Shown one piece after another: positions 3,013-60,380 of a stretch of DNA of 64,000 nucleotides (positions within the stretch are counted from its first letter, which is position 1; each line of letters opens with the position of its first letter). A program made the translations under genes and the position numbers. Under the pieces are notes generated by a model. The model was not told the origin of the DNA. It ran no database searches and was given only the letters and a program-made list of their open reading frames with translations. The stretch spans positions 4,714 to 68,713 of the forward strand of contig JAGBFD010000070.1 in NCBI GenBank assembly GCA_017936645.1, written 5' to 3'. This DNA comes from Clostridia bacterium (GTDB lineage Bacteria; Bacillota; Clostridia; Oscillospirales; Acutalibacteraceae).

Positions 3013-3027
3013 TTTTCTTTCCTTTCT

Positions 3028-3189
3028 TTAAAATAAGCCGGCAAAAAACTCTGCAACCGGAGCGATAACAAAGTGTTGCAAAGCGATCCCGGGTGTTGAT
3101 AAAAAGCCGAGTATAATGGCAAAGTCTACAGAAATATAGTCGGCTATAGAATTAAATGCCGTATTCAAAGTATCAAATATCGACTCCAC
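3028..3189 (-). CDS. 53-aa hydrophobic, acidic small protein with no Lys or Arg, probably membrane-associated
   Basis: The track shows a 103-aa ORF (3028..3339), but AGGAAAGGAGGG sits 6-7 nt upstream of GTG at 3189. Product: MESIFDTLNTAFNSIADYISVDFAIILGFLSTPGIALQHFVIAPVAEFFAGLF. It ends 15 nt before the next gene. Confidence 0.5.
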   Translation of the reverse strand: MESIFDTLNTAFNSIADYISVDFAIILGFLSTPGIALQHFVIAPVAEFFAGLF

Positions 3190-3430
3190 GAAGTGCCCTC
3201 CTTTCCTGAAAAGTGCAGTCTTTAATATTTCCGAAATCAAAGCAGTATATTTAGTTTCAGAAATAAAAAAGTGCGACCACCAAAGCAGTCGAACAAAAAA
3301 ACGCAAACTCCGATAGTCATCATATAATTGATGCAACAAAGCAGTCGTCTGTTTTTTTCGCTAAAAATGCACCGCCTCCTTTCAGGTTGATTTTTTGCTC
3401 TCATTATGTAGTCAGTCAATATGTATTCAA

Positions 3431-4318: not shown

Positions 4319-4354
4319 AATTTAAATCCTTCCTTTTGGAAAATCAACAGTATA

Positions 4355-4382
4355 ATTATACCACAAGTGGTAAAAAAATCAA
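4355..4382 (-). promoter_or_regulatory. sigma-A-type promoter for the YdjC-family gene
   Basis: On the minus strand: TTGATT (4382-4377), 16-nt spacer, TGGTATAAT extended -10 (TATAAT = 4360-4355). Confidence 0.5.
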
Positions 4383-4408
4383 TATAAACGATAAAGTGCA
4401 AATTTTGT

Positions 4409-5218: not shown

Positions 5219-7659
5219 CTCTCAATGCGGATTGTTTTGATTTCCCAGGGTCTGAAACGCAATGTGTTATCCTTAACTTCAGCGATCTTTTTACCGAGCA
5301 GATCAGTTTCGTCCGTAACATTTCCGATTGAAGGTTTGAAATAAGCAATGCCATCTTCATCTGAATAGTTACAGAAACGTACAAGAATGTCGTCCTCATC
5401 ACAGTACATGGTAGTCATAAGGATCTCGCCTTTTTCAACCCTGAAATCAGCAAAACTGAAGCAATCGGTGCTTCCGTTTGCAACAACTTTTACACTCGGA
5501 GTATAGTTGTATAAATATGCCGAACGCTGAATCTGTGCCTCACTTACCGTTGAATCAAAAGTGCTGAGAGCAAATTCGCTTTTATACACACCGTCAAGAA
5601 TTCTCGTTCCGCACATATAAAGATTAGAATACAACAAAGGTATTTCAACACGGTTACCCTGAATCAAAGAGCCCATACATCCGCGATTGAATACAGCTAT
5701 CCCCTTCTGAGTATCACGAAGCCATATTCCATAGATACCTTCCATATATGTAGTCGAGTCGAAAGACTCTTCAGCACTTACAGGTGTGTCAACAAGTATA
5801 AAATCCTTATCGTACCAATAATCTTCAGTTTTGCGTACATCCCCGCTCCACTCGCAGATTGAATACGGCAGATCTCTGACCATCTTTCTGCTCTTTTCAA
5901 GGCAGGTGTTCAGTACAAAATTAAGTTTTTCTTCGTGTCTGTGACCGTCGACAGTCAATGATTTCATCAGACCGTTGAATACACCTGTTCGTCCTACGTG
6001 TTCACCGTGTAATTCAAAGTGGGATTTACAGTCGATCCTCAGACTGTCTGAATTAAAACGCATCTCAAATCTGTACGGGATTCCGCCTATTTCACCATTC
6101 TGAACAGCGACAGCTCCGAAAGCTGATATATTAATGTTCCAGACACCTTCTGAACGGTAATTGACATCTTCCACACAAGCTGTAAACAGTTCGCCGTCAC
6201 CGTTGTCAATAAGACGGCAGTTATCTTTTACACTTTCAAGGTATACGATGCCTTTTTCGTTAACCTTCATTCTGTAGGCAGGAGTTGTAAGTTCGCCTGT
6301 TGCGGCATCCCAGCTACACACAGAATCAGCCTTTTCTTCGTCATTCACCGCAACAAGCGAATAATTTTTAACAGTAAAAGCCGGAATCTCGGCGTGAACT
6401 CTCAGAATGTATCCATCACCTGATTCGATGATTTCGCTTTCAACCTTTTTGTCACCGTCAAATACACAATATCTGTCTGAAGCCTTCACTTCGAGCCACT
6501 CATCAACATCGAAAGAATGAGTATTGACTATAAGTAACGCTTCACCCTCACCGTCAACAAAATAATTTTCAATCACATTTAAAGCTTCGCATTTTACTGA
6601 ATCTGATGCTGCAAGTGAAGTAGGAATAAACCTGCGTGAAAGGTCCAAAAGACCGCAGATCGTGACATCATGGTGCTGTGCAGCAAGAGCATATTTCCAC
6701 GCTTCATCAAGCTTTTCTTTAAAAGACGGAGCACCCAAAAGACTTGCAAGTGCACCTAATTTTTCAGCCTGAACCGAAGCTGCTTCAGCTGCTCTTACAC
6801 CGTTAAAAATCTCGTTGCCGCAATATCCCCACGGCATCTGGATATGGAAATCATTGTCCGTTGTTCTGAGTTCATCCTCAGCTTTTCCGTAAATTTCGGG
6901 TATTTCCTCAAGGAGAATGTACTGACAGTTATCTTTTTCAAGTGTCATTTTTGTGAAATCTTCAATCGGCTGAGTGAGATCGTCATATCTCGACATAAGA
7001 AGCGGCGAATATTTCTCAAACATTTCGCTGAATTCTTCGACAGACTGTACTGTTTCGTGGTCACTTGGCCAACGTGACATAATCCAGTTATCCAAAGTAG
7101 TGCAGTTAAAGCCTCTACCTTCTTTATCATATGTAGGTACTGACGGAATTTCTGAACCATCCTTTCCGATCCAACGACCCCAGGCCGAATCGAATGTGCG
7201 CGGATAGCCGTAACCCATTACGTGTGAGCGGAAAATTGCCGCTTCATGTCCTGTAAGCTTTAAAAGCTGCGGAGTCTGATTGTTAAGGGCATACTCAGAA
7301 ATCGCATACACAGACGGTGTTTTGCCGAAATATTCAAGATTGGTACGCACAGCATAAGTCAGCTGTCTTGCATTTGATTCTTCTGAAATAGTGAGAGACA
7401 AAGGCTGGCCGTAAGTAGTAGCACCGAGACCGACCCTGTCAGGATACTTTTCAAGAAGCTCCCTGATCATATCAACAACTTCCGGATCGCATCTCGAAAA
7501 CTCATCAAAAGTGAATGATTCATAGTCAAGACCGATCTTTAATTTCGGATATATCTCCATCCAGACCGCAATATCTTTAAGTCTTGGTTTGACTTCATCC
7601 TTCCACAAAACATATCCGCCGTGATCATATGTCAACAAGTATAACTTTTTATCTTTCAT
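5215..7659 (-). CDS. GH38-like (alpha-mannosidase superfamily) glycoside hydrolase, divergent
   Basis: 814 aa. AAAGGAG lies 7 nt before the ATG. AAQHHDVTICG (about 6652-6684) matches the GH38 central HHD.I.G block. The N-terminal block is LLTYDHGGYVLW (about 7604-7639) rather than the canonical H.HxDxGW. Confidence 0.45.
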   Translation of the reverse strand: MKDKKLYLLTYDHGGYVLWKDEVKPRLKDIAVWMEIYPKLKIGLDYESFTFDEFSRCDPEVVDMIRELLEKYPDRVGLGATTYGQPLSLTISEESNARQLTYAVRTNLEYFGKTPSVYAISEYALNNQTPQLLKLTGHEAAIFRSHVMGYGYPRTFDSAWGRWIGKDGSEIPSVPTYDKEGRGFNCTTLDNWIMSRWPSDHETVQSVEEFSEMFEKYSPLLMSRYDDLTQPIEDFTKMTLEKDNCQYILLEEIPEIYGKAEDELRTTDNDFHIQMPWGYCGNEIFNGVRAAEAASVQAEKLGALASLLGAPSFKEKLDEAWKYALAAQHHDVTICGLLDLSRRFIPTSLAASDSVKCEALNVIENYFVDGEGEALLIVNTHSFDVDEWLEVKASDRYCVFDGDKKVESEIIESGDGYILRVHAEIPAFTVKNYSLVAVNDEEKADSVCSWDAATGELTTPAYRMKVNEKGIVYLESVKDNCRLIDNGDGELFTACVEDVNYRSEGVWNINISAFGAVAVQNGEIGGIPYRFEMRFNSDSLRIDCKSHFELHGEHVGRTGVFNGLMKSLTVDGHRHEEKLNFVLNTCLEKSRKMVRDLPYSICEWSGDVRKTEDYWYDKDFILVDTPVSAEESFDSTTYMEGIYGIWLRDTQKGIAVFNRGCMGSLIQGNRVEIPLLYSNLYMCGTRILDGVYKSEFALSTFDSTVSEAQIQRSAYLYNYTPSVKVVANGSTDCFSFADFRVEKGEILMTTMYCDEDDILVRFCNYSDEDGIAYFKPSIGNVTDETDLLGKKIAEVKDNTLRFRPWEIKTIRIER

Positions 7660-7682
7660 AATAACACTCCTTTGCTTTTATG

Positions 7683-7711
7683 AGTATATCACCACACTTT
7701 TTTATTGTCAA
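7683..7711 (-). promoter_or_regulatory. promoter of the GH38-like/SDR operon
   Basis: On the minus strand: TTGACA (7711-7706), 17 nt, TATACT (7688-7683). Confidence 0.5.
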
Positions 7712-7734
7712 TGTTAATAAAACTTTATAAAAAA

Positions 7735-7763
7735 TTGACAATGTATTATAAAATTGCTACAAT
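7735..7763 (+). promoter_or_regulatory. promoter of the PHP-MFS operon
   Basis: TTGACA (7735-7740), 17 nt, TACAAT (7758-7763). It is back-to-back with the minus-strand promoter. Confidence 0.5.
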
Positions 7764-7793
7764 TAATTCAATATACAATCAGGAGCTGAGATT

Positions 7794-8546
7794 ATGTTTT
7801 TAACTCGCGGAATTTATGACATAGATGAACTCGCACACTACAATTTACACATACACACTAACTTTTCAGGTTGTGCAAAACCTGAAATGAGCTTTGAAAA
7901 TATCGTTTCAGCCGCTAAACAAGCAGGTCTTGAGATGATAGCTCTCTGTGACCATATTTATAAGCCTGAAGACCTCAAGGAATTCAACGAGAATTGTAAA
8001 ATCCTGAGGAAGAAAAGGGATGAGCTTGATTCTGATATAAAAATCCTGATCGGCGGTGAGTTCTCGTGCTACGGTACGGATAAGTACACTCTGAAAGGTC
8101 TTGATTTTGAAACCGAATACAGACTTTATGCACAGAATCATTTTCACGTTAAAGGCTGGGAACAACCGGATGTGATCACACCCGAGAACTACAAAGAACT
8201 GACCAAAGCCATGCTCAGAAATCTTTTAAAAGATAAAGCCGCTGATACGATCGCTCATCCTCTTAACGGCAAATATCTCACCAAAAGTACAGGTTGGAGC
8301 AATGAGGCTGTGGGAAGCTGCTGGACAGATAATGAAATCGGTGATATCCTGACCGATGCTTATAACAACGAATGTGCTTTTGAATTAAACACAGGTGCTG
8401 TCCTCGCGGATGCACCTTTAGCAAGAAGAATGTATAACATCGGCAAGGAAATCGGTGCTGTATTTACACTCGGAACAGATGCACATACGTTAGAGAGTGT
8501 CGATCCAAAAAGAATCCTGGATGAAGTAAAAAGAGTATTGCTGTAA
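7794..8546 (+). CDS. PHP-domain metal-dependent phosphoesterase (histidinol-phosphatase family)
   Basis: NLHIHTNFSGCA, ALCDHIY and GTDAHT motifs. AGGAG lies 8 nt upstream of the ATG. Confidence 0.7.
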   Translation: MFLTRGIYDIDELAHYNLHIHTNFSGCAKPEMSFENIVSAAKQAGLEMIALCDHIYKPEDLKEFNENCKILRKKRDELDSDIKILIGGEFSCYGTDKYTLKGLDFETEYRLYAQNHFHVKGWEQPDVITPENYKELTKAMLRNLLKDKAADTIAHPLNGKYLTKSTGWSNEAVGSCWTDNEIGDILTDAYNNECAFELNTGAVLADAPLARRMYNIGKEIGAVFTLGTDAHTLESVDPKRILDEVKRVLL

Positions 8547-8559
8547 AGGAGCTGTATAT

Positions 8560-10056
8560 ATGGCGACAAAAGTAATCACAAAAGAAAAGAGTATAAAACT
8601 GCAGAAGAAGTATGAAAAAGAAATTCTGAAATGGGAAAAAGAAAAAGCAAAACCAAAGGGCAGATATTATTTCGCTTATCTCGTTTTCATCATCACTCTT
8701 ATATATGCTACCGATGAAATTGCTTCACAGATAGGAACATTGATGAAAACTGAAATCGCAAACGATCTTCTCGCTTCTTTCGGTGAAAGATCGGGTACAT
8801 TTCTCGATCTCCTCTCAATACTTATCGTTCCCTTTCAGGCAATAGGTCTTCTGTACCGTCCGCTTGCAGACCGTTGGGGACGCAAGACCTTCCTTGTTAT
8901 CAACACTTTCGGAATGAGCTTTGCTCTGTTTGTAATCTTTTTATCAAACTATCTTGAACCGTACTTCAGCTTTTTTCCCTTATTCAGTCTGATTTGCTAT
9001 TTCCTGGGTGCTTGTATGGTTCAGTTTTTCATACCGCACGATATGCACGTCGTGTACATTATGGAATCTTCTCCGTCAAAGCACCGAGGCAAAGTGTATT
9101 CGTCAATCAAATTTATAGCAAATATATCAGTAATGCTCGTTCCCGTTCTCAGAAGAGCACTTATGGAATCAGCTGCGGAGTGGCACAAAGTCTTTTTAAT
9201 TCCGGCAATCGTCGGACTGGTTTCCAGCTTCATAGCTCTTCTGACAGCAAGAGAAACTGATTCATTCATCGAATCACGTCTGCGTTATCTCAGAATGACA
9301 GACGAAGAAAGAGAAGCCGAAAAGAAAAAGAAAGATGTACAAAACGCGCAGGGCGGTCTTATCCCCGCACTTAAGTTCGCAATGAAACACAAACAGCTTC
9401 GTTGGCTTTACATAACCTCATCGATAGTTAATATCGGATTTATCGGCACGGTAAACTATCAGGTCATTATGACCTACGGCTACGCTCAGCATCACGTAAA
9501 AGAAGGACTGTTTGCAACACTTGAAGCCGCACTTGAAGCAGTAAGCATCGGTGACGTAACCACAGCATTGTTTATGTTCCCCGTCGGCTGCGCTGTTTCA
9601 CAGGTTATAATGGGATTCATCTCTGACATCAAGGGTAGAAAAACTGCTGCAATCGTAACCGCAGTAAACTGTATGATAGCATTTTTAACATTCACGGTCG
9701 GCTCATCACTCGGTTGGAATCCTACTCTCGTAGGCTTCCTGTGCGGTGCAAGCATCGGAAGCTACTATTCAACCAATGACGTTCTTATTATGATGATCGG
9801 TGAATCCTCGCCCACAAACCTTCGTTCTTCGACTATGTCGGCACAATTCCTCGTTACAGCTGTAGGATTTGCGTTATCATATATAGTCGGCATTGGTGTT
9901 CCGCTTATTACAGGACTCGGAAACACGATTATCGGCATTGTTTCACTTGCACTTCTTGTTCCGGGATTTATCGGAGCTTTCTTTGCACTTATGTTTAAAA
10001 CTCACGATACAAAAGGAATTGATATGGATACCGTTACAGGTTGCGAATGGGATTGA
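8560..10056 (+). CDS. MFS transporter with a Lys-rich N-terminal cytoplasmic extension
   Basis: 498 aa with about 12 hydrophobic segments. The RPLADRWGRK loop matches the MFS signature. AAGGAG RBS present. Confidence 0.7.
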   Translation: MATKVITKEKSIKLQKKYEKEILKWEKEKAKPKGRYYFAYLVFIITLIYATDEIASQIGTLMKTEIANDLLASFGERSGTFLDLLSILIVPFQAIGLLYRPLADRWGRKTFLVINTFGMSFALFVIFLSNYLEPYFSFFPLFSLICYFLGACMVQFFIPHDMHVVYIMESSPSKHRGKVYSSIKFIANISVMLVPVLRRALMESAAEWHKVFLIPAIVGLVSSFIALLTARETDSFIESRLRYLRMTDEEREAEKKKKDVQNAQGGLIPALKFAMKHKQLRWLYITSSIVNIGFIGTVNYQVIMTYGYAQHHVKEGLFATLEAALEAVSIGDVTTALFMFPVGCAVSQVIMGFISDIKGRKTAAIVTAVNCMIAFLTFTVGSSLGWNPTLVGFLCGASIGSYYSTNDVLIMMIGESSPTNLRSSTMSAQFLVTAVGFALSYIVGIGVPLITGLGNTIIGIVSLALLVPGFIGAFFALMFKTHDTKGIDMDTVTGCEWD

Positions 10057-10078
10057 TTTGATAAAATATCGCAAAAAA

Positions 10079-10117
10079 TGAAGTTGCTCCATAAAAGAGC
10101 AACTTCATTTTCTGTTT
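10079..10117. terminator. bidirectional terminator between convergent genes
   Basis: Stem TGAAGTTGCTC/GAGCAACTTCA (10079-10107), A-run before and TTTTCTGTTT after. Confidence 0.75.
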
Positions 10118-10128
10118 CAACATATTTA

Positions 10129-11220
10129 TCAAAGTGTAGAAATAATTTCTTTAAACTCATGGGATTCTCTGAAATCTTCTGACAATGGATATTTTTCAGT
10201 TAAAAGCTCCTTTATCTGCATTTTAGCAACATAAGTAGTACCTAAAGTGTGCTTGTCAAATTTATTACCTTCAAACATTACTGAGTGCATGGTTGTAATC
10301 CTATCCATATCATCAAACTTGATAGCAAGGTCACACATTTTTTTAAAGTTTTTCAATGCGTTAGCATTATCACCGATTTTGAAATATCTTACACCTAAAT
10401 GTCCGTAATTGTACATTACTGTACGCCACATCTTACCGTAATGCCCGTCATCATAAACAAAATTTAAAAAGTCAAGTTCTGCTTTGAAAGCTGAAAGCAC
10501 CCATTCGTCAGAGAAGCTTCTGTCATAGAAAAAGCCATTATAGTGAAAATAATGAGAATACACCGTATTGAGCAACAAAAACTGTTCTTCAAGTGTGTCC
10601 ATTATTATCTCATCGCCATTCGGATAATTTTCGGGGTAATAAAAACAGAACATTTCCTGACCGTCTCTCATTCTTGGCATTTCTTTTATGATTTTCTCAC
10701 AGTCCTCAAATGTTATACCGCTTCCTTCTTTTTCTGAAAGACCTTTGTAGAGTTCAGCGATATGTCTTTTGGCAGAAATGCGTATTTTGTCATTGTTGCA
10801 GTTCTGCTTGATGTTTTCATATATTGCAATTATCTTTGCAACATTTTCGGGTGTATTTTCTTTGAAATGAACAAGACAAGACATATATCTCAAAAGAATA
10901 CGAAAATCATTAGGAAACTTTTCTTTGAGCTTATTTATTATTTCCAATTTCAATTCTTTGTCTCTGATATTATCATAAGCTTCAAGTTCTTTGATTATTT
11001 CAGCCTCGTCTTCTGCTCTGTTAACACCAAGCAGCTCATCGACACTTACCTTGAAAAAACCTGCAATTTCAGGAAGAATTGTAATGTCGGGATAACTTTC
11101 TCCGCGTTCCCAATTGCTGATGCTTTGAGAAGTAACACCTAAAAACTCCGAAAGGTTTTCTTGCGTAAGTCCTTTTTCAAGCCTTAATCTTTTTATATTT
11201 TCGCTTAAGTAAATAGTCAT
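10129..11220 (-). CDS. XRE-family HTH regulator with a long helical repeat (TPR-like) C-terminal domain
   Basis: N-terminal LRLEKGLTQENLSEFLGVTSQSISNWERGESYPDI is a canonical XRE HTH. About 290 further residues are helix-rich and show no enzyme motifs. Confidence 0.75.
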   Translation of the reverse strand: MTIYLSENIKRLRLEKGLTQENLSEFLGVTSQSISNWERGESYPDITILPEIAGFFKVSVDELLGVNRAEDEAEIIKELEAYDNIRDKELKLEIINKLKEKFPNDFRILLRYMSCLVHFKENTPENVAKIIAIYENIKQNCNNDKIRISAKRHIAELYKGLSEKEGSGITFEDCEKIIKEMPRMRDGQEMFCFYYPENYPNGDEIIMDTLEEQFLLLNTVYSHYFHYNGFFYDRSFSDEWVLSAFKAELDFLNFVYDDGHYGKMWRTVMYNYGHLGVRYFKIGDNANALKNFKKMCDLAIKFDDMDRITTMHSVMFEGNKFDKHTLGTTYVAKMQIKELLTEKYPLSEDFRESHEFKEIISTL

Positions 11221-12723: not shown

Positions 12724-13995
12724 TTACGGCACGAAGTCAAATTCAAGGTCATAAATGACAACCGTGTCGCCTTCCTGTATTCCTTTTTCTTCAAGTGCAT
12801 CTATGATACCGCTTGACTGCAAGACTCTCTGAAAATACTGCAATGACTCATAATCATCAAGATCGGTTCTCTGCAATATCTTAAGAAGCCATTCACCTTC
12901 AACAAAGTACATATCATCTTCGACAGTAATGGTGAATTTACCGCTGCTGTTCTTTTCGAAGAATTCGGCAGGAATCTCTTCCTTCTCATATTTTTTGATA
13001 GGAGGCAGAGTTGCAAGCTTTGCGGCAACAGCATTAATAACCTCCTGTGTGCCCTCAACTATCGGTGCACACATCGTAAAATACTGATAACCTCTTTCAG
13101 TAAAGTACTTTTCGAGTTTTTCAAGCTGTTCGTCAGTCGCAAGATCAATTTTATTGCCTACGACAATCTGCGGCAGGTCCTTCATATCAGGATTGAACTT
13201 GACAAGTTCAGCGTTGATAGTGTTGAAGTCTTCAATAGGATCTCTGCCTTCACTGCCTGCAGCATCAATAATATGCACAAGCAGACGGCAACGCTCAACA
13301 TGGCGAAGGAACTCGTGGCCAAGTCCTATTCCATCGCTCGCACCTTCAATGAGTCCCGGTATATCCGCCATAACAAAAGAATTACCCTCACCCATTGAAA
13401 CGACACCGAGAACGGGAGTAAGTGTTGTGAAGTGGTAATCGGCAATAATCGGTTTTGCCTGGCTGACTACTGAGATAAGCGTTGACTTTCCGACATTAGG
13501 AAATCCGAGCAGACCTACATCAGCGAGGAGCTTGAGTTCAAGACTTACCTCCCACTCTTCACCCGGCACACCGGGCTTAGAAAAACGTGGAGCCTGTCTT
13601 GTAGGTGTAGCAAAATGTGCATTACCCCATCCGCCTCTGCCGCCTTTTGCAGCAATGAACTCATAATCGTCAGACATATCCGCCATAACCTTACCGCTTT
13701 GTATCTCACGGATAACAGTACCTCTCGGAACTTCAATTATAAGATCCTCGCCTCTCCTGCCGCTTCTGCGACCGGTCTGACCGGGTTCACCGTTAGGCGC
13801 CTTGTAATTTCTCTTGTAACGGAAATCAGCAAGAGTGGCAAGATTATCATTAACTTTAAAAACGATATTTCCGCCTCTGCCGCCGTCGCCACCGTCAGGA
13901 CCACCTGCGGCAACATACTTTTCACGGTGGAAAGCGACAGCTCCGTTACCGCCGTCGCCCGCTTTGATTTTAATTTTCGCTATGTCTACAAACAT
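12724..13995 (-). CDS. obg: GTPase Obg/CgtA
   Basis: MFVDIAKIKIKAGDGGNGAVAFHREKY Obg fold, GFPNVGKST P-loop, DIPG and NKID motifs, and a C-terminal TGS-like/OCT domain. Confidence 0.95.
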   Translation of the reverse strand: MFVDIAKIKIKAGDGGNGAVAFHREKYVAAGGPDGGDGGRGGNIVFKVNDNLATLADFRYKRNYKAPNGEPGQTGRRSGRRGEDLIIEVPRGTVIREIQSGKVMADMSDDYEFIAAKGGRGGWGNAHFATPTRQAPRFSKPGVPGEEWEVSLELKLLADVGLLGFPNVGKSTLISVVSQAKPIIADYHFTTLTPVLGVVSMGEGNSFVMADIPGLIEGASDGIGLGHEFLRHVERCRLLVHIIDAAGSEGRDPIEDFNTINAELVKFNPDMKDLPQIVVGNKIDLATDEQLEKLEKYFTERGYQYFTMCAPIVEGTQEVINAVAAKLATLPPIKKYEKEEIPAEFFEKNSSGKFTITVEDDMYFVEGEWLLKILQRTDLDDYESLQYFQRVLQSSGIIDALEEKGIQEGDTVVIYDLEFDFVP

Positions 13996-14016: not shown

Positions 14017-14670
14017 TTATTTTAACTCAGCTCTTGCAGCCTTGATATTTTCAACAAACTGCTTAGCTGTCTCAGTAATCTTTTTATAATCGCCTGTATT
14101 GGCACCTGCTGTAAGTGATGAACCTGCACCGACTGCTACGGCACCTGCCCTGATCCATTCACCGACATTATTTACGTCAACACCGCCTGTCGGCATCATC
14201 TTAGCATAGGGAATCGGACCTCTGATATCTTTTATAATCTTCGGGCCGAAAAGGTCTCCGGGGAAAACTTTGAGAATGTCTGCACCGTTTTCCATAGCAA
14301 TAACACCTTCACGTACCGTCATAATACCCGGCATCATCGCGACTCTGTAGCGGTTGCACATTTTAAGTGTTTCAAGATCAAGATACGGACTTACGATATA
14401 CTGTGCACCGCTGAGCATCGCTATACGTGCCGTCGCAGCATCCATAACTGTACCTGCACCGAGTATGATGTCATTTTCATCATATTTCTTTGCAAGTTCT
14501 TCAATTACTCTGTCAGCGTGAGGAACTGTGAATGTAAGCTCAATAGCGGCAACTCCGCCTTCCATACAGGCGTCCACAATTCTCTCTGCTTTATCTGTGC
14601 TTTCGGCACGAACAACAGCAACAATGCCGCAGTCCTGTATTCTGGTTAAAATTCTTTCTTTATCCATCAT
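14017..14670 (-). CDS. eda: 2-dehydro-3-deoxy-phosphogluconate (KDPG) aldolase
   Basis: 217 aa. IVAVVRA..., IELTFT and the GA..VSPY and KVFPG blocks are typical of Eda-type class I aldolases. Confidence 0.85.
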   Translation of the reverse strand: MMDKERILTRIQDCGIVAVVRAESTDKAERIVDACMEGGVAAIELTFTVPHADRVIEELAKKYDENDIILGAGTVMDAATARIAMLSGAQYIVSPYLDLETLKMCNRYRVAMMPGIMTVREGVIAMENGADILKVFPGDLFGPKIIKDIRGPIPYAKMMPTGGVDVNNVGEWIRAGAVAVGAGSSLTAGANTGDYKKITETAKQFVENIKAARAELK

Positions 14671-14679
14671 GATTACTCC

Positions 14680-15777
14680 TTATCTCTGTACTCTCGCACC
14701 TGCACCGCTGACAATTCTTTCGACTTCAGCTTTACTTGCCATTGAAGTGTCGCCGGGAGTTGTCATAGCAAGTGCACCGTGAGCTACACCGTAATTAACC
14801 GCTGTCTGTGCATCGCCTGTAGTCATAAGACCGTAAACCAGTCCTGATGCAAAGCTGTCTCCTCCGCCTACGCGGTCATATATCTCAAGAGCCGGAAGCT
14901 CAAGACCTTTATATATCTTTCCGTCTGCCCAGCAGATTGCACTCCAGTCGTTGACTGTAGCCGTTTTGACAGTACGAAGCGTTGTTGCGATTACTTTAAA
15001 GTTAGGATAAACCTTTACCGCATTTTCAATCATCTTGAAATATCCGTCAAGGTTCAGTTCCTTAAGATTTTCGTCATTACCTTCGACTTCAAGACCGAGA
15101 CAAGCCGTAAAATCTTCTTCATTGCCGATCATAACATCGATGTATTTTGCAATCTCCTTATTGACCTGCTGTGCTTTTTCTTTACCGCCGATATCCTTCC
15201 AGAGTGAAGGACGGTAATTAAGGTCATAAGAAACTATCGTTCCGTATTTTTTAGCAGCCTTGACAGCTTCAATAACAACCTCTGCAGTAGTGTCTGAAAG
15301 TGCGGCAAAAATACCGCCTGTATGAAGCCATCTTACACCGAGAGTGCCAAAGATATAGTCCCAGTCAATATCTCCTGCTTTGAGCTGAGAAGCTGCTGTA
15401 TTGCCTCTGTCAGAAACACCGACAGCTCCTCTTATACCGTAACCTCTTTCGGTGAAATTGAGTCCGTTACGTACAGTTCTGCCGATACCGTCATATTTAA
15501 CCCATTTTATCAACGAAGTATCAACTCCGCCCTGAAGAATAAAATCCTCAACAAGGCGACCGACTTCATTGTCGGCAAAAGCCGTGACAACAGATGTCTT
15601 AAGTCCGAAGCATCTTCTGAGTCCCCGTGCAACGTTATACTCACCGCCGCCTTCCCATACGCGGAAGTTTCTGGCTGTTTTTATCCTTCCGTCGCCCGGA
15701 TCAAGTCTGAGCATAACCTCGCCGAGTGAAATCATATCAAAAGTGCATTCATTCTGCTCTCTTAATTTCAAATCCAT
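14680..15777 (-). CDS. kdgK: 2-dehydro-3-deoxygluconokinase (PfkB family)
   Basis: PfkB motifs GEVMLR...GG and a C-terminal GGGDSFASG. AAAGGA lies about 9 nt before ATG 15777, which is preferred over the TTG at 15786. Confidence 0.8.
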   Translation of the reverse strand: MDLKLREQNECTFDMISLGEVMLRLDPGDGRIKTARNFRVWEGGGEYNVARGLRRCFGLKTSVVTAFADNEVGRLVEDFILQGGVDTSLIKWVKYDGIGRTVRNGLNFTERGYGIRGAVGVSDRGNTAASQLKAGDIDWDYIFGTLGVRWLHTGGIFAALSDTTAEVVIEAVKAAKKYGTIVSYDLNYRPSLWKDIGGKEKAQQVNKEIAKYIDVMIGNEEDFTACLGLEVEGNDENLKELNLDGYFKMIENAVKVYPNFKVIATTLRTVKTATVNDWSAICWADGKIYKGLELPALEIYDRVGGGDSFASGLVYGLMTTGDAQTAVNYGVAHGALAMTTPGDTSMASKAEVERIVSGAGARVQR

Positions 15778-15782
15778 ATAAA

Positions 15783-16799
15783 TCAATCCTTTCTTCTGAA
15801 TTTCTTAAACGGTCTTGTAATATAAAAAATTATCATAGTCGGATCTTTAACCATTCTTGCAAATTCGTACAGATGCCTTGATTTGAAGAAAGGTATGAAA
15901 AGCTTTTTTATTTTTGCATCAATGTCATCGTTATTTTTAAAATCTTCAAGCCACTTGTCACCTATACGCTTACTCTCTCTCATTACATACTTCTGTGCAG
16001 GCGTACCGATCGAATTGGTTCTGTTGTAGAATATTGTCTGATACAAATACTGAAGACAGTATGCTCTGAGAAAGCTGCATTCTGAATCTCTGAGAAACTC
16101 ACAAAGGTCATCAAACGACAGTGTAATAGAAAACTTGCTCTCTGAGAAACCGGAAGTAACTGAAGAATTTTCACGTGTATAGTAATAATAAAGAGTAAGG
16201 TCAACTATAGCTGTTTTCATTCCCGTAGCCAATAAACGTATGATATAATTAGCATCTTCACCGTTAGCTATTCCTACAGGAAAACGAGCTTTCAAGGCAT
16301 CCTCACGTTTAAAAAGCTTGGCGCATGAAGATTTACCTATGACATTGCCGTTAACCGTTTTGAACAGCTCCTCGTGCGAAGCGTCATGACAATCATAAGA
16401 TTCGATCAGTGGCATCTCCTCATCAAGCTCATAGGTTGATTTCTGATGTCCCGATACCATACCGTAATCGTTTTCTTCGATACATTTAACGAGTATCTCA
16501 ACCGCTTGGTTATGCATATAATCATCACCGTCGATGAACATAATGTATTCACCGCGGGCTGACTCAAGACCCTTGTTACGTGCAGCAGAAACACCTGCAT
16601 TTTCCTGATAAATATATCTGATACGGCTGTCAGACTTAAGAAGTTCGCCTATAACCTGTGCAGAACTATCAGTACTTCCGTCATCAACGCAGATAACTTC
16701 GATGTTTTTGTAGGTCTGACTTAATATACTTTTAATGCAATGTTCTATATAATCTTCGAGATTGTAAACCGGTATAATTACGCTTACCATAGCAGACAT
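15783..16799 (-). CDS. family 2 glycosyltransferase
   Basis: VSVIIPVYNLEDYIEHCIKSILSQTYKNIEVICVDDGSTDSS and FIDGDD (DxD). The stop (15783-15785) lies 5 nt upstream of the kdgK ATG. Confidence 0.85.
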   Translation of the reverse strand: MSAMVSVIIPVYNLEDYIEHCIKSILSQTYKNIEVICVDDGSTDSSAQVIGELLKSDSRIRYIYQENAGVSAARNKGLESARGEYIMFIDGDDYMHNQAVEILVKCIEENDYGMVSGHQKSTYELDEEMPLIESYDCHDASHEELFKTVNGNVIGKSSCAKLFKREDALKARFPVGIANGEDANYIIRLLATGMKTAIVDLTLYYYYTRENSSVTSGFSESKFSITLSFDDLCEFLRDSECSFLRAYCLQYLYQTIFYNRTNSIGTPAQKYVMRESKRIGDKWLEDFKNNDDIDAKIKKLFIPFFKSRHLYEFARMVKDPTMIIFYITRPFKKFRRKD

Positions 16800-16828
16800 G
16801 CTGCCACCTCACTCAATTAATTAATGAA

Positions 16829-17680
16829 TTATACGCCCGAATATGCATTGAAACCGCCGTCAACAGCGATTGTAGTACCTGTAACGAAGCCTGAATACTC
16901 TTTGTCGCAAAGGAACAGAAGTGCACCTGAAAGCTCTTCCGGCTCGCCGAATCTTCCCATAGGAGTAGCCGCAAGAATTTTACCTGTTCTTGCCGTAGGA
17001 GTGCCGTCTTCATTCCATAAAAGTGTCTTGTTTTGCTGAGTGGAGAAAAATCCCGGAGCTATAGCATTTACACGGATACCCATTTCGGCAAAATGTACCG
17101 CCATAAACTGTGTAAAGTTTGCGACAGCAGCCTTAGCTGCAGAATATGCCGGAATCTTTGTAAGAGGACGGAATGCGTTCATAGATGTAACCATAACGAT
17201 ACAGCTGTCCTCTTTCAAAGCCATATCTCTTGCAAAAATCTGAGTCGGAATAAGTGTGCCGAGGAAATTGAGATTAAAAACAAAAGAAATACCCTGAGGA
17301 TCAAGATCAAAGAAAGTCTTGACATTTTCATCCTTTTCTATAAGGTCAATTTTTTCAAGTGTTTCTTTTGTGGTTGTGCCCTTGGGATTATTGCCGCCTG
17401 CACCGTTGAGAAGGATATCACAAGTGCCGAGTTTTTCAGCAACGATATCTCTTGCAGTCTTCATACTTTCAGGCTCAAGCACGTTGCAACCTACAGCAAT
17501 AGCCGTGCCTCCGTCAGCGACTATCTCATAAGCAACCTTCTGAGCGGCAGCTTCATTAAGGTCGAGTACAGCCACTTTAACACCCTGCTTTGCAAGTGTC
17601 TTTGCAAAACCTGAGCAGAGTACTCCGCCTCCACCTGTTATTACTGCAACTTTATCTTTAAGACTTTTATGCTCTGTCAT
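16829..17680 (-). CDS. uxuB: SDR-type D-mannonate oxidoreductase (fructuronate reductase)-like
   Basis: VITGGGGVLCSGFAK, the NGAGGNNP insertion and YSAAKAAV are characteristic of the SDR-type UxuB group (B. subtilis YjmF type). It is adjacent to uxuA. Confidence 0.65.
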   Translation of the reverse strand: MTEHKSLKDKVAVITGGGGVLCSGFAKTLAKQGVKVAVLDLNEAAAQKVAYEIVADGGTAIAVGCNVLEPESMKTARDIVAEKLGTCDILLNGAGGNNPKGTTTKETLEKIDLIEKDENVKTFFDLDPQGISFVFNLNFLGTLIPTQIFARDMALKEDSCIVMVTSMNAFRPLTKIPAYSAAKAAVANFTQFMAVHFAEMGIRVNAIAPGFFSTQQNKTLLWNEDGTPTARTGKILAATPMGRFGEPEELSGALLFLCDKEYSGFVTGTTIAVDGGFNAYSGV

Positions 17681-17696
17681 AATAAATTCCTCCGTA

Positions 17697-18758
17697 TTAC
17701 TTTGACTTTTCTACAGCTTCCCACAGACCGTTGAGGTAAGCAGCACCAAGTGCTCTGTCGTAAAGGCCGTAACCCGGTCGTGCTACTTCGCCCCAGATCA
17801 TTCTGCCGTGATCAGGTCTGATATATCCGTCAAAGCCTGCATCCTGCAGAGCCTTGACAATTTCGTACATATCAAGTGATCCGTCTTCTGAGAGATGAGA
17901 TGTTTCGTTAAACCAGCTTTCACGGATTTTAATATTTCTCAAATGAGCAAAATAAATCCTGTCACCTACCTCACGAATCATCGCAGGAAGATCATTTTTA
18001 CTGCTTGCACCCAATGATCCGGTACAGAACGTAAGACCGTTATACGGAGAATCCACGAGTTTAAGGAACTTTCTGATATCTTCAATATTCTTGATGATAC
18101 GCGGAAGACCAAATATATCCCACGGCGGATCGTCAGGATGAATAGCCATTCTGACATCACACTCTTCACAAACGGGAATAATCTCTTCAAGGAAATGCTT
18201 GAGATTATTCCACATATCATCAGCAGTTATATTCTTGTATTTTTCAAACAGCTCTTTAATCTCGCCCATACGTTCAGTTTCCCAACCCGGCATAGCGTAA
18301 CCGTTGGAATTATCATCAATCTCTCTGAACATATCTTCAGGACTCTTGCCTTCAACCTGAACACCGTTATAACTCAGACAGGTGGCACCGTTACCCATAT
18401 CCATGGCGAGATCAGTTCTTGTCCAGTCAAAAACAGGCATAAAGTTATAACAAATCACCTTCACTCCTGCTTTTGCGAGATTGCGGATGCTTGTCTTATA
18501 ATTTTCAATATACATGTCAGCCGTAGGTGCACCGAGTTTGATGTCCTCATGAACATTAACACTTTCAATGCACTCCATTGTAAGCCCTGCAGCCTCAATT
18601 TCTTTTTTCATATCCATTATCATATCAAGAGGCCATGCCTCAACTGCAGGTAAAGCGTGAAGTGCTGGTACTACACCGACAACACCGGGAACCTGTCTTA
18701 TTTGTTCAAGTGATACGGTATCCTTTTCTTTACCGAACCATCTCATCGTCATCTGCAT
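17697..18758 (-). CDS. uxuA: mannonate dehydratase
   Basis: MQMTMRWFGKEKDTVSLEQIRQVPGV matches the UxuA N-terminus (MxMTFRWYG...). The length of 353 aa is typical. Confidence 0.9.
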   Translation of the reverse strand: MQMTMRWFGKEKDTVSLEQIRQVPGVVGVVPALHALPAVEAWPLDMIMDMKKEIEAAGLTMECIESVNVHEDIKLGAPTADMYIENYKTSIRNLAKAGVKVICYNFMPVFDWTRTDLAMDMGNGATCLSYNGVQVEGKSPEDMFREIDDNSNGYAMPGWETERMGEIKELFEKYKNITADDMWNNLKHFLEEIIPVCEECDVRMAIHPDDPPWDIFGLPRIIKNIEDIRKFLKLVDSPYNGLTFCTGSLGASSKNDLPAMIREVGDRIYFAHLRNIKIRESWFNETSHLSEDGSLDMYEIVKALQDAGFDGYIRPDHGRMIWGEVARPGYGLYDRALGAAYLNGLWEAVEKSK

Positions 18759-18762
18759 AAGA

Positions 18763-19776
18763 TCAATCCTTCTTCAAATATACTTTATCTCCCTTTTCGG
18801 AAGACTCAAAAATCGCCAGAAATTCTTCAACAGCTTTTCCGCCTTCAATGGCATCTATCGGGAACTTTCTGTCATTTTCAATACAATCATAGAAATCACT
18901 GATAAGAGAACCGTGACCCTTTCCCCAATAATTTTTTCCTATAATGTCTGTGTTATCCGCAAGATGAAGCTGTTCAATATCCCCGTCGATGATAACATAA
19001 GCATTATCGCCTTCAAGGCGAAGTGTCGCCTTCTCGCAGACAATATCAATAATGACAGGCAAATTTTTTGAAAATGCTGTCGTTGCATTATAAAGACCTT
19101 TAACACCGTTTTCATACTCAAAGATAGCGTGAACAGTATCCTCAACCTCTATCAGATCCTTAAGATGATCCGTAAAAACATGTCCTGTTACGCACTTTGT
19201 TTTCTGCCCTGAAACATACCTCATAAGATCCTGAGTATGAATTGCCTGATTCACGGCAACTCCGCCTCCCTCTTTCAGGAGCGTACCGTGCCAGTCATCG
19301 CTGTAATAGTCAGCATCCCTGAACCAATGAACAGTAGAGCGCACCGCCTCAACCTTTCCGTATACTTCTCTGTCCACAAGATCCTTTACAATGAGTGCAG
19401 ACTCATTGTATCTGTTCTGAAAGCACACACCGAAAACAGCTTCACTCAAAAGCTGAGCCATACGAAGCTGTGACAGACCTTCCTGAGAAATAGCACACGG
19501 CTTTTCGCAAAGCACATTAATACCTTCACTCAGAGCCTTCACAGACATAGGCACATGCAGATAATGCGGTGTACAGATGTGAACGCTGTCAGGCTTATCC
19601 TCTCGAAGCATCGTATCAAAATCATAGTAAGCCGTACAGCCGTACCTGAGTGCGGCTGCATCTGCTTTTTCTTTTACGATGTCGACAACTGATGAAATTG
19701 TAACTGATTCCATCTCACTAAGAGCTTTAAGATGCAACTGAGAAACTCCGCCACATCCTACAACAGAAACTCTCAT
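18763..19776 (-). CDS. Gfo/Idh/MocA-family NAD(P)-dependent oxidoreductase
   Basis: MRVSVVGCGGVSQLHL Rossmann start and a CEKP motif. 337 aa. Confidence 0.85.
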   Translation of the reverse strand: MRVSVVGCGGVSQLHLKALSEMESVTISSVVDIVKEKADAAALRYGCTAYYDFDTMLREDKPDSVHICTPHYLHVPMSVKALSEGINVLCEKPCAISQEGLSQLRMAQLLSEAVFGVCFQNRYNESALIVKDLVDREVYGKVEAVRSTVHWFRDADYYSDDWHGTLLKEGGGVAVNQAIHTQDLMRYVSGQKTKCVTGHVFTDHLKDLIEVEDTVHAIFEYENGVKGLYNATTAFSKNLPVIIDIVCEKATLRLEGDNAYVIIDGDIEQLHLADNTDIIGKNYWGKGHGSLISDFYDCIENDRKFPIDAIEGGKAVEEFLAIFESSEKGDKVYLKKD

Positions 19777-19792
19777 AATATACCCCCGATTA

Positions 19793-21814
19793 TCAGTAAG
19801 TACTGCTCATATCCTCATTTACAACCGAAACGACATCTTCTTTTGCCTTTGAAGAAGCAACTTTCTTCATAAGAAGATCATAAAACTTATCTTCATCGAT
19901 CGGAAGATCAACTGTCTCACCTGTCCAGCTTGAATAGTGAGCTGCATTTGAGATCATAAGGCCCTTGATTCCTTCTTCACCGTTTGCTACAAGCGGAGAA
20001 CCGAAAAGAATGTGATCGGCAAATGCATTAAGAACACCTGTATGCTGATCGTTGATTCCGTCTGTCTCAACATCGATCTCCTTGACTTCAATATTTGTAA
20101 ATCCGTCTTTACAATTTGCTATATTCTCAGGAAGAGACTCAGCAAGCTCGTAAAGAGTGATCTTTCTTCCCTCTTCGCATACAAGTTTAGCCTTGTCCAT
20201 TGTGATTTCAAGTCTGTTTGAGCCGGGATAATCACCCGTAGTTGTTATAAACACGCCTGTAGCACCATTCGGATACTCAGCGTAAATAGTTACATCATCT
20301 TCGACTTCTATATCGTGCCATTTTCCTTCATGGCAGAATGCGCGGATTTTTGAAGGCATACCGCACAGCCACTGCCAGAGGTCAAGCTGATGCGGTGACT
20401 GGTTAAGCAGAACACCGCCGCCTTCACCTACCCAGGTAGCACGCCATCCGCCTGAGTTGTAGTAAGCCTGTGTACGGTACCAGTCCGTGATAATCCAGTT
20501 TACACGTCTGATCTCACCGTATTCTTTACTGTCAACGATTTCTTTGATCTTTCTGTAAACACAATTCGTTCGCTGATTGAACATCATTGCAAAAGTCTTA
20601 TCCTGTTTTGCTGCAAATTCGTTCATTTCACGCACCTGCTTTGTATAAACACCTGCAGGCTTTTCGGAAACTGCATGAAGTCCGTTTTTAAGGGCTTCGA
20701 TAACAAGAGGAGGATGGAAGTAATGAGGTACACAGATGATCACTGCATCAACCTCACCGCTTTCGATAAGCTCCGTGGCTGTATTGTATCTCTTAGCCCA
20801 CGGGAGATTCTTTTCAGACCACTCAAGCTTTTCGGGAACGATATCAGCAACAGCCGTAACTCGCATTTCCCTTATTTCTCCGTTAAGGAAATTCTTAGCA
20901 TGGGCAGTACCCATATTACCCATACCTATGATGCCGAAACGGATAGGCTGAACCTCTTGTACAACCTTGTGCATAGCATCTGCTGCCGCCTTGAATGACT
21001 CGGCATGAGAAGCGTATGTATGTGCTTTCATAGCATTTTCAACATCGTCCGTAACCTCAAGGTTTGAAAGTCCGTCAAACACATTAAGATGCGGTTCAAG
21101 TGAAAGTACAGCAACCTGCTTGCGCTTGTCAAACTTTTTAAGGATCTCGACAAGGTTGCCTTCACCCTCACCTGCCGGAACAACCTCTGCACTGTTATAA
21201 AGAGCATCCTTGATATGGAAATATTCGATATATTCTTCAAGTAAATCATAAGCCTTTAAAGTATCCACACCGCACTGAATGAAGTTAGCGGGATCAAAAA
21301 CAGCTCTGAGCTTACCTTCACAAGCTTCAAGAACATCAAGACAACGCTCTGCCGTATCACCGTAGATACCTTTTTCATTTTCGTGACAGCAGATAAGTCC
21401 GTTTTCGTCAGCATAGTCAACAAAAGCCTTTACACGACGGATAACTTCATCCCTGTACTCGTTATAATCATCACCTTCATCGAAGTAAAAGCTGAACATT
21501 CTGATATACTTAGCTTCAAGAATCTTTGCAACTTCAACCGTATTTCTGAACGCTTCGAAGTGAGGTTCAAAATCATCTTTTATATTAATTTTACCATAGC
21601 CCGAACCTATAGAAGAAACCTTCATTCCCTCTTTATCTATCTCAGCTTTCATTTCCTTCGCCTGCTCGACGGTAAGGTTATTGATACTGAGATCCGGTCC
21701 GAAACCTCTTAACTCCATATGAGAAATTCCGTTAAGCTTACACGCAGACATCTGACCGCCTATGGTAGCTTCACCTGATTCATCACAAAATGCGGAAAAA
21801 ATAAAATGTGCCAT
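19793..21814 (-). CDS. fusion protein: xylose-isomerase-like TIM-barrel (sugar phosphate isomerase/epimerase fold) joined to a Gfo/Idh/MocA oxidoreductase
   Basis: The N-terminal half has HMELRG, YIRMFSF, CHENEKG, FDPANF, HIKD and LEPH blocks. The C-terminal half starts at VQPIRFGIIGMGNMGTAHAKNF and contains SEKP. AAAGGGG RBS lies before ATG 21814. The track start 21859 lies at or upstream of the predicted transcription start. Confidence 0.8.
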   Translation of the reverse strand: MAHFIFSAFCDESGEATIGGQMSACKLNGISHMELRGFGPDLSINNLTVEQAKEMKAEIDKEGMKVSSIGSGYGKINIKDDFEPHFEAFRNTVEVAKILEAKYIRMFSFYFDEGDDYNEYRDEVIRRVKAFVDYADENGLICCHENEKGIYGDTAERCLDVLEACEGKLRAVFDPANFIQCGVDTLKAYDLLEEYIEYFHIKDALYNSAEVVPAGEGEGNLVEILKKFDKRKQVAVLSLEPHLNVFDGLSNLEVTDDVENAMKAHTYASHAESFKAAADAMHKVVQEVQPIRFGIIGMGNMGTAHAKNFLNGEIREMRVTAVADIVPEKLEWSEKNLPWAKRYNTATELIESGEVDAVIICVPHYFHPPLVIEALKNGLHAVSEKPAGVYTKQVREMNEFAAKQDKTFAMMFNQRTNCVYRKIKEIVDSKEYGEIRRVNWIITDWYRTQAYYNSGGWRATWVGEGGGVLLNQSPHQLDLWQWLCGMPSKIRAFCHEGKWHDIEVEDDVTIYAEYPNGATGVFITTTGDYPGSNRLEITMDKAKLVCEEGRKITLYELAESLPENIANCKDGFTNIEVKEIDVETDGINDQHTGVLNAFADHILFGSPLVANGEEGIKGLMISNAAHYSSWTGETVDLPIDEDKFYDLLMKKVASSKAKEDVVSVVNEDMSSTY

Positions 21815-21863
21815 TGTAATTGCCCCTTTATTGTAAATTGGTGTCCATATTAAACACATTGGA

Positions 21864-21872
21864 ATTATATCA
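21864..21872 (-). promoter_or_regulatory. extended -10 promoter element for the mannonate/KDG operon
   Basis: On the minus strand: TGATATAAT (TATAAT = 21869-21864) with a weak -35 (TTTATT). It lies about 50 nt upstream of ATG 21814. Confidence 0.4.
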
Positions 21873-21916
21873 CAAATTCATCAAAAAATAAAGTATTTAA
21901 TCTGCAAAAATAAAGA

Positions 21917-21945
21917 AAAGTGTCCCAAAAAAAGGAACACTTTTT
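21917..21945 (-). terminator. rho-independent terminator after the 209-aa membrane protein gene
   Basis: The minus-strand RNA reads AAAAGTGTTCC-TTTTTTT-GGGACACTTTT and is followed by CTTTATTTTT. Confidence 0.75.
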
Positions 21946-60348: not shown

Positions 60349-60380
60349 ACCTTTGTGTAGAAATTTTCAGGAGGTTCACT

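Follow-up and report, generated by a model that had tools for sequence, protein, structure and literature searches.

A fused TIM-barrel::Gfo/Idh/MocA protein at the head of a mannonate and 2-keto-3-deoxygluconate operon in an Acutalibacteraceae bacterium: candidate module for oxidative glucuronide cleavage

We present here a seven-gene operon from a Clostridia bacterium (Acutalibacteraceae), located on the minus strand of a 64,000-nt stretch of contig JAGBFD010000070.1; the whole stretch is referred to as the window, and all coordinates are those of the window unless a locus is named. The operon encodes a fusion of a TIM barrel with a Gfo/Idh/MocA oxidoreductase (TIM::GFO), a second Gfo/Idh/MocA oxidoreductase (GFO2), UxuA, an SDR-type UxuB, a GT2 glycosyltransferase, KdgK, and Eda. 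Our favored reading, which we consider probable, is that genes 1 and 2 cleave alpha- and beta-glucuronides through a 3-keto intermediate and that UxuB, UxuA, KdgK, and Eda consume the product. The operon would combine a cytoplasmic, non-hydrolytic glucuronide-cleaving module of the type known from fosmid P2B11 with the lower half of the Ashwell (isomerase) hexuronate pathway. The seven co-directional, tightly packed open reading frames (ORFs) run from 21814 to 14017, and their domain content was confirmed with Pfam and NCBIfam as follows.

19793-21814, minus strand: TIM::GFO fusion, 673 aa, with AP_endonuc_2 at aa 40-256 and GFO_IDH_MocA N- and C-terminal domains at aa 306-652.
20963..21814, minus strand: N-terminal domain of the fusion (aa 1-284), a xylose-isomerase-like TIM barrel, counterpart of P2B11 Iso1 (AP_endonuc_2, 76 bits).
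19793..20962, minus strand: C-terminal domain of the fusion (aa 285-673), a Gfo/Idh/MocA dehydrogenase (GFO1), counterpart of P2B11 Oxido1, matching PDB 8TDI.
18763-19776, minus strand: GFO2, 337 aa, counterpart of P2B11 Oxido2 (GFO_IDH_MocA N- and C-terminal domains).
17697-18758, minus strand: UxuA, D-mannonate dehydratase (PF03786, 525 bits; NF003027, 498 bits versus a cutoff of 191; TIGR00695, 402 versus 200).
16829-17680, minus strand: SDR-type UxuB, D-mannonate oxidoreductase/fructuronate reductase family (NF006132, 421 bits versus a cutoff of 281).
15783-16799, minus strand: GT2 glycosyltransferase, a soluble GT-A protein with a DGDD motif (PF00535, 140 bits).
14680-15777, minus strand: KdgK, 2-keto-3-deoxygluconate (KDG) kinase, PfkB family, long Thermotoga type (PF00294; match to 2AFB).
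14017-14670, minus strand: Eda, 2-keto-3-deoxy-6-phosphogluconate (KDPG)/2-keto-4-hydroxyglutarate (KHG) aldolase (PF01081, 141 bits; NF005119, 290 versus a cutoff of 238; TIGR01182, 180 versus 156).

The reference system, P2B11, is a gut-metagenome fosmid from a Collinsella-like organism that carries the four genes Iso1, Oxido1, Oxido2, and Iso2 (Nasseri et al. 2024, bioRxiv 10.1101/2024.03.25.586180). Together its proteins act on alpha- and beta-glucuronides but leave glucosides uncleaved; slow cleavage is seen with other 6-anionic glycosides (6-PO4, 6-SO4, and sulfoquinovoside), and Mn2+ and Co2+ stimulate the activity (bioRxiv 10.1101/2024.03.25.586180). Oxido1 is the key enzyme and the effect of Oxido2 is minor; both barrels raise the rate in vitro and show 3-keto-glycoside lyase activity (bioRxiv 10.1101/2024.03.25.586180). 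The main mechanism, oxidative glucuronide cleavage, is already published. A fused Iso1::Oxido1, the loss of Iso2, and operon coupling to uxuA-uxuB-kdgK-eda were not found in that paper or in the later literature searchable here, and a literature search on 3-keto-glucuronides and fused variants returned no follow-up beyond the original P2B11 paper. The P2B11 cluster was recovered as locus L086, with an Oxido1 99% identical to 8TDI and termini that match the cloning primers in the supplement. In this locus the 6 kb that follow Iso2 contain a GH3 gene, an MFS_2 transporter gene, and UxaC (L086:4325-10162), although according to the paper no transporter or regulator is apparent nearby.

The GFO1 domain matches PDB 8TDI, the P2B11 glucuronide-3-dehydrogenase, with 355 bits (E 4e-105, 46-50% identity), and the next structure scores 114 bits; blastp against Oxido1 gives 46% identity (E 5e-118). 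The Oxido1 pocket residues named in the paper, N147, W179, R181, Y185, N205, and H209 (bioRxiv 10.1101/2024.03.25.586180), are all aligned and identical in the GFO1 domain (6/6). The TIM domain is 36% identical to Iso1 across its full length (E 3e-55). Its metal and catalytic residues, H144/E145, D174, H200/K202/D203, and E240/H242, are invariant with Iso1, and the H-E, D, H-K-D, and E-P-H barrel motifs are invariant among the window protein, Iso1, and free and fused relatives. GFO2 shares 38% identity with Oxido2 (E 1e-62) and occupies the equivalent position directly downstream. By these homologies, the TIM domain is a putative metal-dependent 3-keto-glucuronide 1,2-lyase and probably acts as a hydratase as well. 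GFO2 resembles C3 dehydrogenases rather than C1/C2 reductases, sharing the EKP motif, N124, W151, R153, Y157/158, N176, and H180 with Oxido1-type enzymes; its top solved relatives are 3Q2I, 3Q2K, and 8TDI, with WbpB-type enzymes also matching, and it reaches about 36 bits against 1,5-anhydrofructose reductase. It would be a 3-keto-glucuronate/glucuronate oxidoreductase or a cofactor-recycling partner.

Like P2B11, the window has Iso1, Oxido1, and Oxido2 counterparts in the same order (three of the four P2B11 components), keeps the Oxido1 pocket and the Iso1 metal and catalytic residues, and places the cluster among unrelated genes with no regulator. The proteins also look cytoplasmic in both; the fusion has no obvious N-terminal signal peptide on inspection. 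Its translation begins at the ATG at 21814, preceded by a good ribosome-binding site, and an identical protein is recorded in public assemblies, in which no protein from the longer ORF beginning at 21859 is recorded. The two systems differ in that Iso1 and Oxido1 are fused in the window into one 673-aa protein, and in that the window module heads an operon with uxuA, uxuB, kdgK, and eda, whereas the P2B11 contig has an MFS_2 transporter and UxaC instead, 3-4.6 kb downstream. The hosts also differ: that of the window belongs to the Acutalibacteraceae (Clostridia) of animal guts, and that of P2B11 belongs not to Clostridia but to Coriobacteriia.

From the homologies, conserved residues, gene order, and recurrent linkage to glucuronate genes, we infer the following route. 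The GFO domain of the fusion, with bound NAD+, would oxidize the C3 hydroxyl of a glucuronosyl residue. The metal-dependent barrel would then take the C2 proton and eliminate the aglycone from either anomer, and the same barrel would probably hydrate the resulting 2-hydroxy-3-keto-glucuronal to 3-keto-glucuronate. The keto sugar would be reduced to D-glucuronate by the NADH form of the same dehydrogenase or by GFO2, closing a redox-neutral cycle. A UxaC encoded outside the window would convert glucuronate to fructuronate, after which UxuB would yield mannonate, UxuA KDG, KdgK KDPG, and Eda pyruvate and glyceraldehyde-3-phosphate. Fusion of Iso1 to Oxido1 would pass the labile 3-keto-glucuronide directly between active sites. 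An earlier reading of the DNA, made from the sequence alone (hereafter the sequence-only reading), had expected AP_endonuc_2 and GFO_IDH_MocA N- and C-terminal domains at 19793..21814, all of which are present. It had also proposed 3-keto-glycoside elimination by a GFO oxidase and a xylose-isomerase-like TIM barrel and had listed glucuronides as a candidate substrate. Both points are backed by strong homology to the in vitro-characterized P2B11 Iso1, Oxido1, and Oxido2 and by the recurrent linkage to uxuB, uxuA, kdgK, and eda.

Among the lower-pathway proteins, UxuA, UxuB, and Eda exceed curated NCBIfam cutoffs. KdgK has no NCBIfam equivalog above its cutoff, and its best solved relative is Thermotoga maritima KdgK (2AFB, 191 bits); the gene starts with the ATG at 15777, giving 365 aa, instead of the TTG at 15786. 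Relative to the Escherichia coli Ashwell pathway (uidA/uxaC/uxuAB/kdgK/eda), the window likewise holds the uxu genes apart from uxaC and has UxuB, UxuA, KdgK, and Eda contiguous. UxuB is of the SDR type in the window and of the long-chain mannitol-dehydrogenase type in E. coli, and the glucuronide would be opened by oxidation and elimination rather than by a GH2 beta-glucuronidase. UxuA was considered as a stand-in for Iso2, having the Iso2 position and an AP_endonuc_2-like barrel, and was rejected as a full-scoring UxuA with no similarity to Iso2.

The chemistry has precedents in sister systems. In Bacteroides/Alistipes BT2156-2159 and AL1-4, for which oxidation, elimination, and hydration are established, a GFO 3-dehydrogenase with tightly bound NAD works with a TIM-barrel 1,2-lyase, followed by hydration and re-reduction, and both anomers are tolerated. 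Those enzymes differ in being periplasmic, in acting on neutral glucosides and mannosides, and in using a DUF1080 hydratase; window scans found no DUF1080 protein, and the BT_2158_fam and BT_2159_fam models reach 33 bits versus cutoffs of 750 and 650. DgpA/DgpBC, which the sequence-only reading had named as an analog, and levoglucosan LGDH/LgdB likewise combine a GFO C3-dehydrogenase with lyases or hydratases of the xylose-isomerase-like TIM-barrel type, but their sequences are distant (LGDH, 55-58 bits versus a cutoff of 650) and their substrates and downstream genes are others. It is very improbable that genes 1 and 2 serve inositol catabolism (IolG/IolE/IolI) or the deglycosylation of C-glycosides (DgpA/DgpBC). 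Such a role would agree with the domain types (GFO plus AP_endonuc_2), with IolG as the top NCBIfam label by score, and with the IolI and IolE structures among the fold matches of the barrel. The IolG model TIGR04380, however, scores 109 and 111 bits versus a cutoff of 355, the IolE model 24 versus 290, and an IolC N-domain model 116 versus 300, and Pfam scans covering most window ORFs of at least 150 aa found no iolB, iolC, iolD, or iolJ. DgpA structures score about 33-45 bits with the GFO1 domain and about 49-66 bits with GFO2 (E 2e-7 to 3e-17), versus 355 bits for 8TDI; the barrel has no DgpB/C sequence match at E < 0.01, and sister enzymes oxidize C-glycosides without cleaving them. The inositol, levoglucosan, BT2158/2159, and DgpA readings were rejected, with scores far under curated cutoffs or E-values 60-90 orders weaker than that of 8TDI.

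A scan of GTDB species representatives found pattern-confirmed relatives in at least 587 species, and gene context was counted in the best 80 species-level loci. These are 61-96% identical, almost all in Acutalibacteraceae/Oscillospiraceae metagenome-assembled genomes (MAGs) from ruminant, other animal, and human guts; the closest to the window's organism is L006 (96%). Neighbors were counted within 8 kb, on the same strand, and downstream of the module, and the counts are lower bounds, many contigs ending inside the locus. A TIM domain lies directly upstream of GFO1 in 55/80 loci, at least 53 of which hold true fusions of about 673 aa, and GFO2 follows GFO1 in 49. The module's commonest neighbor is a UxuB-type SDR, found near GFO1 in 36 of the 80 loci; KdgK is near it in 16, UxuA in 13, and Eda and GT2 in 8 each. 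The remaining neighbors are mostly housekeeping genes, with linked transporters or regulators rare.

The seven-gene order, which the sequence-only reading had proposed to seek in related genomes, recurs in independent MAGs. The full arrangement of the window, including the SpoIID-MTS-RsmI flank and obg, persists in loci whose fusion is as little as 74% identical (L003 and L004). L021 and L023 (the latter at about 70% identity) retain the seven-gene core with a GH106-like insert and without the upstream flank, and L032 and L083 have the pathway genes without GT2. Genomes with the window-type operon comprise JAZRNG01, JAZSPL01, JAZNPE01, JAXJUJ01, JAGAVE01, JAFUPA01, GCA_045580385.1, and GCA_052836965.1. 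Because independent MAGs with fusion identity as low as about 70-74% still share this order, the arrangement is not chance. Other layouts comprise a three-gene fusion-GFO2-SDR unit, which is the commonest, an AraC-fusion-GFO2-GH130 unit, and unfused Oxido1 with or without separate barrels. In an all-protein representative library, about 1000 clusters at 50% identity match at E <= 1e-30, and at least 11 of them are full-length TIM::GFO fusions at 30-59% identity. The same library contains reverse-order fusions with an N-terminal GFO domain and a C-terminal TIM barrel (P0288 and P0251), which suggests independent fusion events. The TIM::GFO fusion is real, old, and common and is not an assembly artifact.

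Some of these layouts bear on whether the module acts on a different substrate, such as a sulfoquinovoside, a 6-phospho- or 6-sulfo-glucoside, a mannuronide, or a free sugar acid, its place in the operon then reflecting shared regulation or chance. In L012-L019 and L047 (e.g., L015:4529-5545 and L014:5539-6927), fusions about 80% identical to that of the window (GFO domain) stand in another context: an AraC regulator, the fusion, GFO2, and then a GH130 related to beta-1,2-mannobiose phosphorylase, below cutoff. Upstream of these units are a GH4, a phosphotransferase system (PTS) EIIC, and an MFS_2 transporter; GH4 enzymes are NAD/Mn oxidation-elimination glycosidases. In L024-L031, L037, and L040 (GFO1 at about 10001-11155), an unfused Oxido1 homolog (about 385 aa; 63-66% identity) lacks any TIM barrel within 10 kb and is flanked by a GH3, an 820-aa protein without a Pfam match, and a Flg_new-repeat protein, among parAB, serS, and spoU. 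These contexts, the slow action of the P2B11 enzymes on 6-PO4, 6-SO4, and sulfoquinovoside substrates, and the room that 46-50% identity leaves for specificity drift all speak for another substrate. We nonetheless consider it rather improbable: the glucuronide-enzyme pocket is conserved at every one of its six residues, the recurring partners in several independent arrangements are UxuB, UxuA, KdgK, Eda, and UxaC, and no genes for sulfoquinovose or 6-phospho sugars turned up nearby in the Pfam scans.

Several observations weigh against P2B11-type glucuronide cleavage by the window module. Identity to the characterized P2B11 enzymes is 36-50%. Searches with P2B11 Iso2 (tblastn and blastp) found no counterpart either in the window or among the fused-type loci, Iso2-like proteins being confined to unfused loci, and the remaining Pfam scans of the window showed no second free TIM barrel. 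The AlphaFold2 (AF2) model of the TIM domain has a TIM-barrel fold (predicted local distance difference test [pLDDT] score, 87), and Foldseek against the PDB returns generic xylose-isomerase-like barrels at a template modeling (TM) score of about 0.7 (AsbF, IolI, ketose 3-epimerases, and UlaE), with the 2-hydroxy-3-keto-glucal hydratase 8RO4 ranking 50th. The modeled fold thus gives no functional resolution, the barrel not being separable from epimerases and dehydratases; the TIM-domain assignment therefore rests on sequence homology to Iso1. The operon contains no transporter or regulator gene. The uronate isomerase gene uxaC was not found in the window, in the extra 6 kb beyond the window end (the contig being 76 kb), or within 10 kb of any window-type locus, and tblastn with E. 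coli UxaC, UxaA, and ExuT had no match across the window. Finally, UxuB is the usual immediate neighbor of the module (36 loci, versus 2 for UxaC), which is odd if the product is free glucuronate.

The sequence-only reading had proposed that genes 1 and 2 replace UxaC and form a new entry branch. This is unsupported: uxuAB without uxaC is normal in E. coli, and related modules adjoin uxaC elsewhere. An uxu operon without uxaC is ordinary, because E. coli keeps uxuAB apart from its uxaCA-exuT locus. UxaC stands beside related modules in three lineages (L082, L086, and L079). The order in L082 is LacI, Iso2-like, Iso1-like, Oxi1, and UxaC, the last scoring 614 bits on NF002794, and in L079, a cultured fused-type isolate (Acutalibacteraceae bacterium SVS042), UxaC adjoins gcvH at a distance of 7 kb. 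Because this family disperses its sugar genes among housekeeping genes, the absence of uxaC from 64 kb means little.

A UxaC-independent entry, in which the fused module, GFO2, and the SDR deliver fructuronate directly, or mannuronate and then mannonate, can still be set out. Enone hydration could conceivably give a metal-bound 2,3-enediol that ketonizes to the 2-keto form or is re-protonated to the manno form; reduction by GFO2 or the SDR would then yield fructuronate or mannonate without a uronate isomerase. In its favor, UxaC is the only step between glucuronide and pyruvate plus glyceraldehyde-3-phosphate that the operon lacks, it is omitted in all window-type loci and in L032 and L083, and the commonest layout is the one in which the SDR, not UxaC, adjoins the fusion and GFO2. 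The Iso2-bearing systems beside UxaC (L082 and L086) are unfused, and fused, Iso2-less systems pair with the SDR; the other six Iso2-like loci have KdgK and neither UxaC nor an SDR. Oxidation at C3 also erases the C2 stereochemistry, and sister enzymes act on both glucosides and mannosides. Set against this are the E. coli gene arrangement, the UxaC retained near the fusion of the isolate, the scatter of sugar genes, the C3-dehydrogenase pocket of GFO2 with its low score against 1,5-anhydrofructose reductase, and an SDR that passes an ordinary D-mannonate oxidoreductase model. The GFO2 pocket fits conversion of 3-keto-glucuronate to glucuronate, predicted chemistry that still needs UxaC. We regard direct delivery of fructuronate or mannonate as unlikely, and doubt that the fused, Iso2-less module, GFO2, and the SDR form a self-contained route from glucuronide (or mannuronide) to D-mannonate with no uronate isomerase. 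If true, such a route would obtain the aldose-to-ketose shift, or the C2 epimerization, at no extra cost from the 2,3-enediol and would make the operon a complete glucuronide-to-pyruvate pathway with new entry chemistry. It would also account for the module's habit of adjoining the SDR and not UxaC. Glucuronide cleavage to glucuronate, with UxaC supplied from elsewhere in the genome, remains our preferred reading.

The GT2 gene is the operon member that could not be given a place in this pathway. The solved structures closest to its product are those of biosynthetic enzymes, GalT1 (5HEA) and chondroitin synthase, and it diverges far faster than its neighbors, with 40-73% identity among loci where UxuA has 89-98%. 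L023 carries a duplicate of it, and L032 and L083 lack it, their uxuB lying directly next to kdgK. The GT2 is probably a passenger, a lineage-specific insertion into an ancestral uxuA-uxuB-kdgK-eda block; a pathway role was rejected for this ordinary, fast-evolving GT-A protein. Sister operons carry other insertions: a 630-aa LRR_5 gene at the uxuB-kdgK site, between GT2 and kdgK (L003:16043-17935, L004:16062-17954, and L022), and a 1038-aa gene of GH106-like type (alpha-L-rhamnosidase family) between kdgK and eda (L021:9589-12705 and L023:17341-20415). The latter hints at Rha-GlcA-capped substrates, e.g., arabinogalactan side chains.

The gaps between consecutive genes of the operon are 16, 4, 16, 29, 5, and 9 nt, and the following features border it.

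21916..21944, minus strand: terminator-like hairpin with an 11-bp stem followed by the T-run CTTTATTTTT, ending an upstream 209-aa gene.
21864..21872, minus strand: predicted extended -10 promoter-like box, TGATATAAT, an exact TGnTATAAT read from the sequence.
12724..13995, minus strand: obg GTPase gene, 21 nt downstream of eda with no terminator between; outside the pathway.

The sequence-only reading had described seven co-directional genes, which holds, with a spacing of 5-29 nt, which measures 4-29 nt. Its extended -10 element at 21864-21872 proved to be the exact match given above; the box has a poor -35 and is absent from the two-hexamer consensus scan. No convincing internal terminator was found within the seven genes, in agreement with that reading, and its statement that the operon lacks uxaC, a transporter, and a regulator was likewise borne out. 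The hairpin at 21944-21916 marks the 5' boundary of the transcription unit. At the other end, the unit may run on from eda into obg, because only 21 nt and no terminator separate them; a catabolic operon would then read through into a housekeeping gene. The eda-obg adjacency is kept in related loci, and the module adjoins obg, an essential GTPase gene, in many related genomes and in several orientations. The flanks of the operon consist of housekeeping genes, with obg, mini-RNase III, and YitT on one side and rsmI-like, MTS, and SpoIID on the other. Neither the Rfam scan nor the tRNA scan gave a match in the window.

Other sugar-related genes lie elsewhere in the window. A second cluster, on both strands (1528-10056), encodes a 494-aa protein without a Pfam match, YdjC (3431-4318), an SDR (4409-5218), an 814-aa protein with weak GH38-C/GH57 matches (5215-7659), a PHP-domain protein (7794-8546), and an MFS transporter (8560-10056). 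Genes for PHP-domain and nucleotidyl-transferase proteins are likewise found within the unfused Oxido1 clusters of L052, L060, L061, L064, L065, and L076. A permuted GH3 (49354-51966), with GH3_C at aa 52-322 before the GH3 N domain at aa 556-750, adjoins a long MFS_2-containing ORF (46694-49090), and another MFS_2 transporter (60339-61916) accompanies a GH27 alpha-galactosidase (58884-60191). These MFS_2 genes (46.7-49.1 kb and 60.3-61.9 kb) were rejected as the operon's transporters, being part of other glycoside loci (GH3 and GH27); their proteins are just 23-25% identical to the MFS protein on the P2B11 contig. A second GT2 (429 aa) overlaps a 364-aa ORF without a Pfam match at 36582-38949, among thyA, metG, and tatD.

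Glucuronide cleavage in the gut matters for the reactivation of drugs and hormones and for how the side chains of plant glucuronoxylan and arabinogalactan are used. Surveys of it have so far relied almost entirely on GH2-type beta-glucuronidase (GUS) genes, and CAZy- or GUS-based surveys would miss the module described here. The oxidative P2B11 route has so far been known from one fosmid in vitro, without physiological context. The locus frames two questions, namely, whether a single barrel suffices for both elimination and hydration and whether the route bypasses UxaC. The module is widespread and, in Acutalibacteraceae, is usually one fused polypeptide without Iso2; its repeated placement beside glucuronate catabolic genes is the first genomic argument that its natural job may be in glucuronide catabolism.

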